Positions 15,308 to 27,614 of a stretch of 54,293 nt of DNA are shown here, piece after piece. The position numbers and the translations under genes are program-made. Source of the stretch: a virus (Duplodnaviria; Heunggongvirae; Uroviricota; Caudoviricetes). The notes under the pieces were generated by a model, which had not been told where the DNA came from, did no database searches, and saw nothing but the letters and a program-made list of their open reading frames with translations. The stretch lies in IMG/VR virus record IMGVR_UViG_3300028797_000106. The stretch is one strand, 5' to 3'. The first letter of the stretch is position 1. Each line of letters begins with the position of its first letter.

Positions 15308-15561
15308 TGGTCTTTAACGGAAAGATAGAAGATCTTAAAGTTGTCAGGAATGGCGATTATGTCGAGTATCGTATTCCTGACAATGATCATCTTCTTTGGC
15401 GGTATAATGCGCTTCAGGCGTCAATGTTTGTTGGCAAGCCAGGCTGTCAGACCCAAGAAGAATTTGATGAAGGCGTAAGACTTTGTCTTCAGGCCAGAAT
15501 GCCTTTAGTTAGACCCGTAAACATTCTTGATTGGGGAAACCCAACATTTGAGGTTCTTTAG
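15307..15561 (+). CDS. Hypothetical protein
   Basis: TGATG coupling with the upstream micropeptide. Confidence 0.6.
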   Translation: MVFNGKIEDLKVVRNGDYVEYRIPDNDHLLWRYNALQASMFVGKPGCQTQEEFDEGVRLCLQARMPLVRPVNILDWGNPTFEVL

Positions 15562-17283: not shown

Positions 17284-18251
17284 TGGTTAAAAAGATTGAC
17301 CTACACGACGGTTCCATTTGGAACCGTCTTTTTTCGTTTGATGTAAGCGACGATTTCGTTGACTTAATCATTGACGGAATTGCCCCATCATGGGTGAGAT
17401 GTGACGATTTAGCCAGAATGCAAATTCGTCAAATGTATAAGGCGGCAATAAATGTTCGTAAAGAGGAGTTTTTCAACCTACAGGCGAACTATCGTGTATA
17501 CTCATGCCACCTGCTTGATGAGCATTTGAGGGCGACAAAACATCCTGCCTGCAGATACGCCATCACTTCAAATTACACTGCCGGTATTCTGCGAAACATT
17601 TATAATGAGCAGAAGGCAGACTCACTTGCGCTAAAAGCATCTATACAAAAGAAGCAACTTCAATGGGACCGTGCAGGTCGTAAGATACGGCAAAAGATGG
17701 GCAAGCGTCCAAAGTTGCCGGATAATATGTTCTGTATCAAGTACCCTACTCTAGCTCTCTTTGCGGAGGACAACCTAAAGCAGATTGCGAATGCGTTAAA
17801 TCCGTTTCAGTTTGACTGCTGTTGTTGGGTCTTCCAGTGGCTCATGGAGTACATACTGCAACTTAAAACCGAGTACATGCTTAATGCTCCTGAATTCTTC
17901 ACGGAAAAACTTAATGACATGACACGAATGTATTTCCATAACAAGGAACTACAGTTCTGGCGAGAATTTCTTGAAGATCAGCGAGATGCAGCAGAGGCGA
18001 AAAGCCGAAGCATGCTTACGGAACTTGTTGAACATCGTGGGTGGACTTGGAACGATATCTGGAGCACTTACAACGGCGGCATGTTCGCTCCACATAATCA
18101 TTCACGACGAGCCATCGGTTTATGGACACCGAGAGAAGACTTTGAGCAAAAACTTTATGTCCTTCTTTCTGACGGTGTTCAGGCGTATTTCAAGACTCGA
18201 GATAAAGCGGAAAAAATGGACAAAATACATAAAGAAGCATCACTTGCTTGA
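17283..18251 (+). CDS. Hypothetical protein
   Basis: 322 aa, TAATG-coupled to gp45. Confidence 0.75.
   Translation: MVKKIDLHDGSIWNRLFSFDVSDDFVDLIIDGIAPSWVRCDDLARMQIRQMYKAAINVRKEEFFNLQANYRVYSCHLLDEHLRATKHPACRYAITSNYTAGILRNIYNEQKADSLALKASIQKKQLQWDRAGRKIRQKMGKRPKLPDNMFCIKYPTLALFAEDNLKQIANALNPFQFDCCCWVFQWLMEYILQLKTEYMLNAPEFFTEKLNDMTRMYFHNKELQFWREFLEDQRDAAEAKSRSMLTELVEHRGWTWNDIWSTYNGGMFAPHNHSRRAIGLWTPREDFEQKLYVLLSDGVQAYFKTRDKAEKMDKIHKEASLA
17307..17334 (+). terminator. Intrinsic terminator just inside the gene after gp45
   Basis: GACGGTTCC-ATTT-GGAACCGTC-TTTTTT. Confidence 0.7.
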
Positions 18252-18611: not shown

Positions 18612-18835
18612 TTTACATTATGGACGATAGCGACATAAAGCTCGCCCGGAAACTTACAACCGACGGCATTGACTGCATGTATGAGCAGATGCAATTTAAT
18701 CATCGGCTCTTAATCAACAAGAAATGCCGCACCATTTCACAACTTGAGGAAATCTTTGGAAAGAACCTCAAGGTCATTCGGAAAAGGGAAAAAATTAACA
18801 AACTAAAAAGCGAAGCGCTGCGCGGTTTGAAGTAA
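18608..18835 (+). CDS. Hypothetical protein
   Basis: 75 aa, ATGA-coupled. Confidence 0.6.
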   Translation: MIYIMDDSDIKLARKLTTDGIDCMYEQMQFNHRLLINKKCRTISQLEEIFGKNLKVIRKREKINKLKSEALRGLK

Positions 18836-18948
18836 AAAAACTAGCCCAAAATTGATGTTTGCCGCCTTAAAATTTTTGAACTGATAAATCCATTTACTGT
18901 TTTTTTTGACGCCCTCAAACATCCTTTTTGCACAAAACTTACTTCTTC

Positions 18949-18995
18949 GGAAAAATTGCCGCTCAACTTAAAAACGGTCAAAACTTTGTTAAATT
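18949..18995 (+). promoter_or_regulatory. Putative middle-type promoter driving the structured RNA
   Basis: GGAAAAATTGCC starts 41 bp before -10 TAAATT (18990), with AAAACTTTG before the -10; A/T tracts upstream. Confidence 0.55.
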
Positions 18996-19001
18996 TGAAA
19001 C

Positions 19002-19316
19002 AAAGAAAAACCTATTGCTGGCTCGGGGTTCAACTCAATGAATTGTCGGATAAGCGTAGGTCGCCGCGGGTTGAGACGAACCGCAGAAATGGCGAATGTC
19101 AGCGAAGTGGAAATTAGCAGTTTTCACACATAGCCGTCACGCGCATTGTGAAATGTAGCCGGAGTACAGGGTGACCGCCCCGTAAGTTCACAAATAAGAC
19201 GAATTACAAAGTCATACGGTTCAGCAGTTAGAAGAAAGAAGATACTGCTGTGGACTGGAGATTTGTAAGTTCCCTACTGGGCTTACTGTCTCCGGTTCTC
19301 AGTTACAGAAAGAAGA
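19002..19316 (+). ncRNA. Putative structured non-coding RNA / long 5' leader of unknown family
   Basis: The only long ORF-free interval in the window. At least six stems can be paired by eye (e.g. 19015-22/19098-105, 19061-65/19091-95, 19222-28/19244-50, 19254-61/19289-96). Confidence 0.5.
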
Positions 19317-19345
19317 ATTTCAATTAACAATAAAGGAAAAACAAC

Positions 19346-20293
19346 ATGCCAGAATTCATACTTCCAACTCTTAAAGGTCTTGACAAGGACTTTTCTGAAA
19401 AACTTATCACAACAGCATGCGAGGAAACCCGCGTTGGACAGAGAGGTCCAGACTGTTATTACCTCGGAATTGTTTGGCTCGGAGCTTGCGCTTACGAGAT
19501 TAAGAAGATGATGCCGATGATTAACGATGATCTTCTTATTGAAAAGACAATTCACGACTTCCTTCAGGTTCACCCGGATCTTGCTATTAAGCAGGGTTCA
19601 GACAAACCTGCCGTGACTGTTGGAAAGGTTCATGACCTTGGACATGATGGACTGGCACTTGTTGAAATGCCGGATCCTACTCCGCAGCCGACATACACAC
19701 CTCCTCCGATGGATTGGAGCAAGGTGACTACCGGTCTTGACGGTACTGACTTTGACATTACGCCTGAAATGATTGAAGAAGCAAAGAAGGATGAAGTCGG
19801 TCTTCGTAACCGTTTGTTCTGCTCTCATTTCTGGAGAGATGTGACTGAAGGCATGACATCTAACATGGACATCAATAACCTTGACCTCAAGGGCTGGAAC
19901 ATTTTCCAGGGCTTCTTCAAAGAAAGCTGGATGTGTCACTTGTGGGATACCCGCACTGGTAATGACGGCGAATGGGAAGAATACAAGGAACGCAGAACTG
20001 AAAACGGCGACCGCTTCCCGATGACTTGGGCAGAATTCTGTGACGGATTGTATGAAGACAACGATCCTGATGCAGAAGAAGATGAATTGCCTGAAAATGT
20101 TGATGATCTTGATGGCATTGATGAAACATGGACGAACCCAAACTGGGTTGGCAAGAAACTCCCGAAAACTGTGGCACAGCGCTATTACATTGCACCTGAT
20201 GAAGTTTGGGGTTTCCTCTCTTGCTGGTTCTTGAGAATCGTTTATGATTCTGCAACCGGTGAAATCATTTGGTGCACAAGCCATCAGGACTAA
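19346..20293 (+). CDS. Two-domain acidic hypothetical protein with Pro-rich linker
   Basis: 315 aa, SD AAGGA, PDPTPQPTYTPPP linker, Trp/Asp/Glu-rich C-terminal domain. Confidence 0.8.
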   Translation: MPEFILPTLKGLDKDFSEKLITTACEETRVGQRGPDCYYLGIVWLGACAYEIKKMMPMINDDLLIEKTIHDFLQVHPDLAIKQGSDKPAVTVGKVHDLGHDGLALVEMPDPTPQPTYTPPPMDWSKVTTGLDGTDFDITPEMIEEAKKDEVGLRNRLFCSHFWRDVTEGMTSNMDINNLDLKGWNIFQGFFKESWMCHLWDTRTGNDGEWEEYKERRTENGDRFPMTWAEFCDGLYEDNDPDAEEDELPENVDDLDGIDETWTNPNWVGKKLPKTVAQRYYIAPDEVWGFLSCWFLRIVYDSATGEIIWCTSHQD

Positions 20294-20294
20294 T

Positions 20295-20510
20295 ATGTTC
20301 TCGAAATTCATTCACACTTTGAACTTTTCCGTAAGCGGAAAGAACTACACAACAAAAATTGAAGATGATTTGACGCATGAAGAATACTTGAAGGTCATTA
20401 ACCGTTGTAAGACAAAGGTTTTTGGCAATACACTTCAGGTAATCTCTTGCGAAACGAAGGAACGAGATGAGCAGGAAACGACTACCACGCCTATTACGCA
20501 ATCTCCGTGA
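20295..20510 (+). CDS. Hypothetical protein
   Basis: ATG 1 nt after the upstream stop; AGGA upstream. Confidence 0.55.
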   Translation: MFSKFIHTLNFSVSGKNYTTKIEDDLTHEEYLKVINRCKTKVFGNTLQVISCETKERDEQETTTTPITQSP

Positions 20511-26273: not shown

Positions 26274-26431
26274 AAAAGAAAGAACTAATTGCCTTGTTGG
26301 CTGATAAACCTGACGAATCTGAAGTATTCTTTTCATTTGACGATTCGTATAATTCAGTCTATAAGATGGGAATCAAAAGAGTCAGGGTAAACGATAAAAA
26401 CCAAATCATACTGGATAACGAAGATGATTGA
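26270..26431 (+). CDS. 53 aa hypothetical protein (not in the ORF track)
   Basis: MKKKELIALLADKPDESEVFF...; overlaps both neighbours. Confidence 0.55.
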   Translation: MKKKELIALLADKPDESEVFFSFDDSYNSVYKMGIKRVRVNDKNQIILDNEDD

Positions 26432-27614
26432 GATACAAGGAAAATATAACACTGCGGTTGTCTATTCAGACACTGTTGAGCCGGTCGCATATTCTCAGAT
26501 CTTGAATATGATGTGCCAAATTTGGGCTAAGAATAGCCAAGTCAAGCTCATGCCTGATGTTCATGCAGGCAAAGGATGCACAGTTGGAACCACAATGACT
26601 ATCGTGGACAAGGTCGTGCCTAACCTAGTAGGCGTAGACATTGGCTGCGGTATGCTTGTCGCTAAGGTCAAGCCAAAGGGACACATTGAATTTGGGCAAC
26701 TGGACAAGTTAATTAAGGAGAAGATCCCATCTGGCAAGGAACACCGTGCCAACAAGCACTCCTATGCCAAGGACTTTGAACAGTTTGACGATTTGATTGC
26801 AGATGTCAAGCGTGAAGAATTGCTGTCCATCGGTTCACTCGGTGGCGGTAATCATTTCATTGAACTTGACAAGGACGAGGGAGGCAACTACTACCTCGTT
26901 ATTCACAGCGGTAGCCGTCATTTGGGCGTTGCTGTTTGTGAATACTGGCAGAACCGTGCCATCAAGGAATGCAAACAAAAGACTGAAGAAAGAGGTCAAC
27001 TCGTAGCCAAGTATAAGGCACAAGGAAAGAACGACGCAGAAATCAAAGAGCTGCTTAAGGACTATGACCACTTCTCAGTTCCAAATGAACTTGCATATCT
27101 GACTGGCGAGTCAATGGAAGGCTACTTGCATGACATGGCTATCACACAGGAATTTGCTGTGCAGAACCGTGCTGCGATGCTTAATGAAATTGTCAAGGGT
27201 ATGAACTGGAAGGTTGAAGAAAAGTTTGAGACCATTCATAATTACATTGACTTGAAGAATATGATTTTGAGAAAAGGCTCAGTCTCAGCACAGAACGGAG
27301 AACGCCTGATTATCCCAATGAACATGCGTGATGGCTCGCTCATCTGTGTGGGTAAGGGAAATCCTGACTGGAATTATTCAGCTCCGCACGGTGCTGGCCG
27401 TTTGATGAGCCGCGCTGACGCAAAGAACAGCATCTCGATGAAAGATTACAAGGAAGCCATGAAAGGCATATATACAACATGTGTTTCATCGGCAACCGTT
27501 GATGAAAGCCCAATGGCCTATAAGCCAATGGATGAAATCATCAAGAACATTGAACCGACCTGCACGATTGAAAAGATCATCAAGCCGGTTTATAACTTTA
27601 AGGCAGCATTCTAA
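26424..27614 (+). CDS. rtcB: RtcB RNA ligase (3'-phosphate/5'-OH)
   Basis: MPDVHAGKGC, VGVDIGCGM, GSLGGGNHFIE, IHSGSR, HNY, RKG, SAPHGAGR, DESPMAYK. Confidence 0.96.
   Translation: MIEIQGKYNTAVVYSDTVEPVAYSQILNMMCQIWAKNSQVKLMPDVHAGKGCTVGTTMTIVDKVVPNLVGVDIGCGMLVAKVKPKGHIEFGQLDKLIKEKIPSGKEHRANKHSYAKDFEQFDDLIADVKREELLSIGSLGGGNHFIELDKDEGGNYYLVIHSGSRHLGVAVCEYWQNRAIKECKQKTEERGQLVAKYKAQGKNDAEIKELLKDYDHFSVPNELAYLTGESMEGYLHDMAITQEFAVQNRAAMLNEIVKGMNWKVEEKFETIHNYIDLKNMILRKGSVSAQNGERLIIPMNMRDGSLICVGKGNPDWNYSAPHGAGRLMSRADAKNSISMKDYKEAMKGIYTTCVSSATVDESPMAYKPMDEIIKNIEPTCTIEKIIKPVYNFKAAF

Follow-up and report, generated by a model that had tools for sequence, protein, structure and literature searches.

The non-coding stretch analysed here, on the plus strand of an uncultivated T4-like phage, is by sequence comparison almost certainly a gene for an extended form of the cow-rumen-2 RNA, and represents a slightly variant subgroup of this catalogued, uncharacterised RNA family. 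The best overall explanation, in which the extended cow-rumen-2 RNA gene has its own promoter and its product would act in trans as a folded particle, is given an even chance of being correct. An earlier note on the window (the whole stretch of DNA analysed, 54,293 nt) had described a structured non-coding phage RNA of about 300 nt on the plus strand and had called it an orphan, novel RNA. The structured RNA, at about 315 nt, is borne out by an Rfam match and by covariation in relatives; its novelty is not, since the centre of the element is a full-length member of RF02947.

Regarding the identity of the RNA, the core of the element (Table 1) matched RF02947, cow-rumen-2, with 98 bits against a gathering cut-off of 66 (cmscan, E 1.1e-17), covering model positions 1-106 of 106 without truncation, and this was the sole Rfam match in the whole window. 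The Rfam scan proposed in the earlier note thus showed the RNA to be already catalogued in part. The core shares with the Rfam model all three helices, namely P1 with its UAGC loop, P2 and P3, and the invariant junction nucleotides AGCCGCCA, GUAGCYGGARUACAGGNUGACC and CCRUAAG. The motif is said to have been described originally from cow-rumen metagenomes with neither organism nor function assigned. It is given as one of 224 candidate RNAs by Weinberg et al. (2017; PMC5737381) and is among the structures refined with R-scape in Rfam 15 (PMC11701678); no function is reported for it in the literature naming the motif.

Other RNA identities found no support. A permissive Rfam scan of 18700-19450 with E up to 10 returned, besides cow-rumen-2, only three chance-level matches (E 6.9-8.5), with RNase P, group I/II intron and self-cleaving ribozyme families absent, and ARAGORN detected neither tRNA nor tmRNA in the whole window, in agreement with the earlier statement that the RNA is none of tRNA, tmRNA, RNase P or group I intron. 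An RNase P-like P4, formed by 5' AAGUCC/AAGNC with 3' GGCUUA, was rejected, as AAGNC covaries with its local partner in helix H1, no model matched, and GGCUUA sits in a local hairpin (hairpin b). A conserved small ORF starting from the AUG of the 5' loop was likewise rejected by inspection, as it has 31 codons in the window and only 7 before a stop in relative L002.

The RNA lies in an ORF-free gap of 510 nt (18836-19345), the longest in the window without a plus-strand ORF of at least 70 aa, the runners-up being about 255 and 237 nt; the upstream ORF stops at 18835 and a downstream ORF of 315 codons begins at 19346. The gap is therefore the long non-coding interval that had been claimed, and its G+C content of 0.49-0.52 over 19000-19200 vs 0.33 in 18850-19000 agrees with the claim that it is GC-richer than its upstream flank. 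A long inverted repeat with a T-run at 18854-18932 is apparently the end of the preceding operon. All genes of the window are on the plus strand, and among them are genes for a T4-type sliding clamp, RNase H, topoisomerase II subunits, a gp15-like tail protein, an RtcB RNA ligase and a cytosine methylase.

Relatives were sought with patterns of invariant core nucleotides in viral, metagenome and genome contig collections, which gave 39, 106 and 19 matches, respectively; once chance matches were removed, 93 distinct sequences with full flanks, falling into 40 clusters, were obtained. Nearly all are on large T4-like phage contigs from ruminant gut metagenomes, many of these contigs being 100-424 kb in length; where a source is stated it is goat gut compartments, and one cluster member is from an activated-sludge assembly. 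Genomes carry one to four copies, dispersed and on both strands: a covariance-model search of five records found four copies in each of two complete genomes (415 and 424 kb), a single copy in a 248-kb genome that is 98% complete, and one or two in fragments. The whole RNA had no blastn match among cultured phages in 50,697 GenBank phage records. Matches in MAGs labelled Bacilli, Methanobrevibacter, Ca. Coprovivens and Succinivibrionaceae are on contigs of 15-266 kb that are probably mis-binned phages, and no host was drawn from them; the largest of these contigs are 170-266 kb. Matches in Duganella, Nocardia and Sulfurimonas, together with L042, L052, L063, L078 and L083, look like chance matches to unrelated DNA and were discarded.

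Table 1. Coordinates of the predicted RNA, its helices, repeat copies and promoter, and of the RtcB gene, in the window
Feature	Position	Strand	Remarks
Upstream promoter box GGAAAAATTGCC	18949-18960	+	starts 41 bp before the -10 hexamer; same box in L145
AAAACTTTGT followed by -10-like TAAATT (18990-18995)	18980-18995	+	predicted promoter
Whole conserved unit, extended cow-rumen-2 RNA, ~315 nt	about 19003-19316	+	flank conservation in 40 clusters
5' domain, one long irregular hairpin	19011-19060	+	alignment, RNAalifold, own-strand test
H1	19011-19019 with 19053-19060	+	
CG/CG step of 5' domain	19024-19026 with 19046-19048	+	
Apical stem of 5' domain	19027-19031 with 19040-19044	+	
5' domain loop, 8 nt, AACUCAAU	19032-19039	+	nearly invariant in family as AAYYCAAU
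Variable hairpin domain H2	19061-19095	+	19061-19065 with 19091-19095; 19066-19072 with 19079-19084
Core	19101-19206	+	RF02947 match
PK1	19102-19104 (GCG) with 19176-19178 (CGC)	+	core 5' tail to P3 loop, three pairs
P1	19107-19113 with 19121-19127	+	
PK2 (probable)	19136-19140 (GUCAC) with 19171-19175 (GUGAC)	+	five pairs, all Watson-Crick in window copy
P2	19142-19152 with 19187-19201	+	
P3	19160-19162 and 19164 with 19179-19182	+	
Hairpin a	19222-19250	+	stem 19222-19228 with 19244-19250; 15-nt purine loop carries repeat copy 1
Repeat copy 1 unit	19225-19242	+	in hairpin a loop
Hairpin b	19254-19296	+	19254-19261 with 19289-19296; 19265-19269 with 19282-19286; 19272-19274 with 19279-19281
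Repeat copy 2 CAGUUACAGAAAGAAGA	19300-19316	+	3' end of conserved unit; fixed distance from GGCU
RtcB RNA ligase gene	26424-27614		~7 kb from RNA

Both flanks of the core are conserved in the relatives, and the Rfam model represents only the middle third of the conserved RNA, which measures 290-370 nt across the family (mostly 320-340 nt) when counted from immediately 5' of the first helix through the second repeat copy. Both limits given in the earlier note agree with this analysis, 19002 with the predicted transcription start and 19316 with the end of the block common to relatives L145 and L067. The RNA has four parts, consisting of a 5' hairpin domain, a variable domain that also forms hairpins, the doubly pseudoknotted core, and a 3' domain in which a direct repeat flanks a conserved hairpin.

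In the 5' domain, the variable part of H1 changes on both sides in at least 10 different ways in an anchored alignment of 70 sequences, the strand pairs of relatives including CUAA/UUAG, CAUA/UAUG, CCUA/UAGG, CUCG/CGAG and CUGA/UCAG. Partners for the domain's loop AAYYCAAU were looked for by eye, and the candidates in P2 and the variable domain disagreed from class to class. The closing helix of H2 similarly shows both-sided changes, from UCGCC/GGCGA in the window to UAGAC/GUCUA in L067 and to CCAUU/AAUGG and CGUU/AACG in other classes; the number and size of hairpins in this domain differ between classes. In the 3' domain, hairpin a is found only in the subgroup to which the window belongs, with pairs changed yet kept in L067, L015, L025 and L030. 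Hairpin b carries on its 3' strand the family-wide motif GGCUUAnUGUCUC, conserved in almost all clusters, and its partner strand varies in sequence and register between classes.

Pairing of the strands was also assessed by an alignment-free test, in which the duplex energy of each RNA's own strands was compared with that of strands taken from different clusters, using 31-40 cluster representatives. Own strands paired better than mismatched ones in all five helices tested, these being H1 (-9.0 vs -5.7 kcal/mol, p 1.6e-13), H2 (p 1.7e-4), P1 (p 6e-24), P2 (p 2e-22) and hairpin b (-15.2 vs -9.9 kcal/mol, p 1e-12); these p-values overstate independence because the clusters are related to one another, although the direction is clear. 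RNAalifold on 14 relatives recovered H1, the inner 5' stems, P1, P2 and P3, with compensatory changes in 19 of 38 pairs. Among 93 relatives, the top mutual-information pairs were all in P1, P2 and P3, one P3 pair being placed by covariation at 64:79, where the Rfam structure line has 63:79; scans of the flanks gave mostly class-level correlations.

Mutual information further picked the pair 19102/19178, outside the Rfam helices, and thereby the first pseudoknot, PK1. Across the 93 sequences, model pair 2:78 is U-A in 59, G-C in 20, A-U in 12 and G-U in 1, with one non-pair; model pair 3:77 is C-G in 77 and U-A in 16 with zero exceptions, and model pair 4:76 is an invariant G-C. The second, PK2, which can also be written as junction GCCAU with P3 loop AUGAC at the same positions, has model pair 40:71 as U-A in 82, C-G in 5, A-U in 4 and U-U in 2 of the 93 sequences, while pairs 39:72, 38:73 and 36:75 are invariant and complementary. 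At model pair 37:74, 80 sequences have C-A and 13 have U-A; the window is one of the latter, reading GCCGUCA where the family has GCCGCCA, and this C-to-U change at position 37 in the window's clade makes the fifth PK2 pair Watson-Crick. PK2 is weaker than PK1, since only one covarying pair supports it, and is probably a real contact. RNAalifold additionally proposes pairing of the junction AGCC (19132-19135) with the GGCU of hairpin b (19280-19283), all eight bases being invariant; this proposed contact would stack on PK2 and compete with hairpin b.

The stems quoted in the earlier note are all present where it placed them, and the comparison bears out six of the seven. GTGGAAA/TTTTCAC corresponds to Rfam helix P1, with strong covariation; TCGCC/GGCGA is the helix kept in L067 with both strands changed, as given above, and the GCGG/CCGC of GCGGGTT/AACCGC is also kept there; CAGCAGT/ACTGCTG becomes CACCAG/CAGGUG in L067 and CCAGUC/GACUNGG in L025 and L030; and ACTGGAGA/TCTCCGGT, with GTAAG/CTTAC and CCC/GGG, corresponds to the hairpin conserved in the 3' domain. 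The outermost stem, TTGCTGGC/GTCAGCGA (19015-19022 with 19098-19105), fails: it forms in the window and nearly in L145, but is broken in L067 and L005, where compensatory changes preserve the alternative pairings of its strands, in H1 and PK1. The earlier note had missed P2, P3 and both pseudoknots. Covariation in homologs, the absence of which had been named beforehand as refuting the RNA, was found in the helices of the relatives. The proposed comparison of folding energy with shuffled controls gave a marginal result, with -91.8 kcal/mol for the plus strand (z = -1.88, 3 of 100 shuffles as good) and z = -1.12 for the minus strand, and the case would be weak on this criterion alone. Thus, the decisive evidence for the predicted structured RNA is comparative, consisting of the Rfam match and covariation, with single-sequence folding only marginal.

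Regarding the direct repeat, the purine-rich sequence claimed to occur twice is present as described: the word AGAAAGAAGA is exact at 19233 and 19307, within units of 17-18 nt that begin at 19225 and 19300. In most clusters, a 6-10 nt word precedes hairpin b and is found a second time downstream of GGCU, at a constant spacing. This word varies from class to class and matches within each RNA, the two copies changing in step; it is AGAAAGAAGA in the window and L145, AGAAAAAAGA in L067, AGAAAAAAG in L112, AAACAAAGA in L015, L025 and L030, AGCAAAAGA in L014 and L051, CCAAAAGAA in L056 and L060, ACGGAAUAU in L001 and ACAGAU in class B, twice in each case. The best ungapped match averaged 7.4 nt within the same RNA, 5.5 nt between different RNAs and 5.4 nt with shuffled partners, and the same-RNA match exceeded the 95th percentile of shuffles in 41% of clusters. 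A search for a target of the purine repeat found its complement once in the window, with one mismatch (18161-18170), a match without significance; the window's coding strand has many purine-rich words.

Three readings of the repeat were rejected. A two-state switch, in which the 3' strand of hairpin a alternates between copy 1 and copy 2, would by inspection have only 3-4 possible pairs with copy 2. A template for rolling-circle reverse transcription was not pressed further in view of stops in both orientations of the inter-copy unit (by inspection) and the lack of a reverse transcriptase gene nearby. A transposon-like element, with the repeat as target-site duplication and hairpin b as terminal inverted repeats, is unlikely because the repeat is class-specific yet matched within each RNA, and hairpin b is at the same place in all classes. 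The co-evolving repeat is the main unexplained feature of the RNA, and any functional model must explain it.

A predicted promoter of a phage-specific class lies directly upstream (Table 1) and would place the transcription start at about 19002-19006, consistent with the earlier claim that the RNA has a promoter of its own. The pattern GGAAAA-N(33-38)-TAWATT occurs six times in the window, all on the plus strand, vs 0.24 expected (25-fold), and its proximal part (AAAACTTTGT with the hexamer motif) eight times vs 1.1 expected; further members of the class, at 15561 and 16441, precede the genes for the nucleotide pyrophosphohydrolase and the sliding clamp. Exact TAnnTTTG (mostly TATATTTG) is present upstream of the core in 26 of the 40 clusters, against a background of 0.64 per kb, and mostly 10-25 nt before the conserved 5' end; many of these clusters also carry TTTACA, 16-17 nt further upstream. 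In place of the window's arrangement, most other classes of the family have TTTACA and, after 16-17 nt, TATATT(TG).

Promoter and RNA form one conserved block ending with repeat copy 2, as shown by the limits of two blastn matches. That of L067 to the window covers only 18980-19316, at 78%. That of L145, the closest relative, begins at or before the promoter, runs through the RNA to 19317 and resumes at 20296; therefore the 315-codon gene at 19346 is absent from L145, where a homologue of the 20244 gene comes next after the RNA. In nearly all loci the RNA is in an ORF-free gap between co-oriented ORFs, the downstream genes belonging to 29 unrelated sequence families and the upstream genes to 26. 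Annotated downstream genes include those for baseplate hub, tail tube, GroEL, Hsp20 and phosphoesterase. No gene consistently co-occurring with the RNA was found, and no tRNA genes were detected near the RNA copies in 50 related loci or in the window.

The RNA would be made in the early or middle phase of infection, and a folded particle acting in trans by binding protein or nucleic acid is favoured tentatively, at slightly under an even chance. Most likely it would bind a protein or other macromolecule via its invariant junction nucleotides and the two identical single-stranded copies of the repeat; a single protein partner would sit uneasily with the difference of the repeat between paralogues. 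That the folded RNA is itself functional is suggested by its invariant unpaired positions, by the presence of two pseudoknots and by genomes having kept several diverged paralogues. Regulation of one specific gene downstream is unlikely, because the neighbours are unrelated and the 19346 gene is lost in L145; the suggestion that the element is a leader of the 19346 gene, made in the earlier note, is disfavoured on the same grounds. The protein sponge also suggested there is possible.

A general cis-acting 5' leader, in which the RNA stays on its transcript and acts on it, is the strongest of the alternatives, although we regard it as unlikely. It could serve in antitermination as does the HK022 put RNA, in protection from 5' decay, or in timing expression by switching the pairings of the 3' domain. 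In nearly all loci a promoter immediately precedes the RNA and the genes downstream share its orientation, and several copies per genome would fit one per transcription unit; like put RNA, it is a folded RNA right after a phage promoter, heads co-oriented genes and is present in more than one copy per genome. In the window, neither terminator nor second promoter is present between the RNA and the 19346 gene, so that the RNA might physically be no more than the 5' portion of the mRNA of that gene, and with the preceding operon apparently ending upstream, transcription of the downstream genes would depend on this promoter too. Of the 40 clusters in the family, only about 8 have a canonical terminator in the 260 nt that follow the RNA. 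Pairing of the hairpin b GGCU with the core AGCC would allow a two-state fold, but involves only invariant bases. Against a leader stand the unrelatedness of the downstream genes and the T4-type late-promoter word TATAAATA, which is not rare in A+T-rich DNA. Of the 40 clusters, 13 have this word within 70 nt after hairpin b and 20 have it within 260 nt, so that the downstream genes in those 13 would have their own promoter, unlike the arrangement of put RNA. In L014, a strong terminator follows the RNA and then an ORF on the opposite strand. Conservation furthermore stops at 19316, about 30 nt before the start codon, leaving the ribosome-binding region outside, and the size and tertiary complexity of the RNA are far above those of known antitermination or stabiliser elements; put RNA has about 70 nt and two stem-loops, whereas the cow-rumen-2 RNA is four to five times larger and pseudoknotted.

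A more speculative proposal, which we consider doubtful, is that of a distinct class of large, doubly pseudoknotted RNA of jumbo T4-like phages, with up to four diverged paralogues per genome, in which a conserved scaffold would carry a duplicated, paralogue-specific, single-stranded 'address' flanking a hairpin. Such an RNA might be programmable, pairing with nucleic-acid targets specific to each paralogue, or might be a primer marking several origins.

The replication-origin primer as such, which the earlier note had suggested as an R-loop primer, is improbable. By this account the transcript of a middle-type promoter would form a persistent RNA-DNA hybrid through its purine-rich 3' part, with the 5' fold controlling the hybrid. 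Purine-tract composition favours stable RNA-DNA hybrids, and the 3' repeat is a purine tract in many classes; non-purine repeats such as ACAGAU, with an ordinary -35/-10 promoter, are however used by other classes. The resemblance to the primers of T4 oriF/oriG and ColE1 RNA II lies in a promoter-driven non-coding transcript with a purine-rich 3' part, and that to oriF/oriG also in a phage-specific promoter class shared with replication genes, here including the sliding-clamp gene, and in several dispersed copies per genome, here four in 415-424 kb. An A+T-rich stretch follows the RNA, but neither iterons nor other origin features were seen. The strong covariation and the two pseudoknots suggest that selection acts on the fold of the free RNA rather than on a hybrid, and the oriF/oriG and RNA II primers are not known to need such a conserved pseudoknotted fold.

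A catalytic or self-processing RNA, or one from which a smaller piece is cut out with the repeat copies beside hairpin b marking two equivalent processing sites, is a shade more improbable still: many invariant unpaired nucleotides surround the double pseudoknot in the manner of small self-cleaving ribozymes, the two copies of the repeat keep fixed positions on either side of the hairpin b base and the phage has an RtcB RNA ligase gene, but no Rfam ribozyme family matched in the permissive scan, a conserved candidate cleavage site was not found, there is no link to genes usually accompanying self-cleaving ribozymes, and RtcB, 7 kb away, has ordinary RNA-repair explanations. The remainder of the probability falls to an explanation outside those considered.

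Among known RNAs, close counterparts are GOLLD and ROOL, large ornate RNAs of unknown function that are often found in phages and form cages (PMC12286853). They share with the extended cow-rumen-2 RNA a large size, an intricate fold and a phage-borne location, and ROOL was also first seen in cow-rumen data. GOLLD and ROOL differ from it in having about 580-800 nt vs 290-370 nt, in showing neither sequence nor model match to the window RNA and in being often beside tRNA genes, which was not the case for cow-rumen-2 in the 50 loci and the window.

The Rfam cow-rumen-2 model leaves out the 5' domain, the variable domain, the 3' hairpin with its repeat and the promoter, and its structure line lacks the two pseudoknot contacts. 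For the window itself the result is modest, one more, slightly variant family member, in this case in a T4-like phage genome. For the family, cow-rumen-2 has been one of many Rfam motifs without attached organism or function; the relatives place it in large T4-like phages, mainly of the ruminant gut, and the catalogued 106 nt are only the core of an RNA of 290-370 nt with a predicted promoter of its own, to whose model two covarying pseudoknots are added and in which a co-evolving direct repeat is revealed. Phage RNAs of such size and tertiary complexity are rare, and GOLLD and ROOL proved to have unexpected architectures; the family is therefore a reasonable target for structure probing and cryo-EM.

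Investigation of the related loci revealed that the usual 5' hairpin domain of the RNA is replaced in L036, L055, L057, L070, L075 and L092 by a different, longer conserved domain that includes GGUCUUCCUAAAG and GAGGCACCUAA, and that L048 and L066 likewise lack the usual domain. Because a subset of members has replaced its 5' domain, at least two alternative 5' modules combine with the cow-rumen-2 core. Regarding habitat, the family is not strictly limited to ruminant guts, since one member (L096, of the L013 cluster) lies on a 65-kb contig from an activated-sludge metagenome assembly.

On the 5' side, the long inverted repeat listed below is located just upstream of the promoter of the RNA and, with its T-run, is probably the terminator of the preceding operon. 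The window has six + strand copies of a bipartite promoter-like pattern (GGAAAARTTT, then ~30 nt, then AAAACTTTNT, then TAWATT), with 0.24 expected, and genes of replication and nucleotide metabolism are downstream of several copies; this seems to be a phage-specific promoter class of the middle type.

Coordinates of features in the window and on a contig carrying a relative of the RNA
Feature	Position	Strand	Detail
Bipartite promoter-like pattern	3304, 15561, 16441, 18949, 30024, 34456	+	pattern match
Long imperfect inverted repeat, then T-run	18854-18932		arms 18854-18872 and 18905-18923
315-codon gene	19346-20293		immediately 3' of the RNA
tmRNA gene	L076:5821-6175	-	ARAGORN; tag ANTYAMAA

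The 315-codon gene had no PHROG match and is missing in the closest relative, L145, where a homologue of window gene 20244-20510 directly follows the RNA; the difference is an insertion or deletion at the 3' boundary of the RNA. In some phages the RNA is followed by a chaperone gene (L070:7876-8664, L058:97-528), whose product is either a chaperonin of the GroEL type or the small heat-shock protein Hsp20; such genes in jumbo phages may be worth separate attention. The tmRNA call is on a 149-kb phage-like contig, which also bears a cow-rumen-2 copy.

Neither pseudoknot (model positions 2-4/76-78 and 36-40/71-75) is drawn in the RF02947 structure line from cmscan, which pairs position 63 with 79, whereas covariation among 93 sequences favours 64 with 79. 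The Rfam family model has room for both extension and correction.
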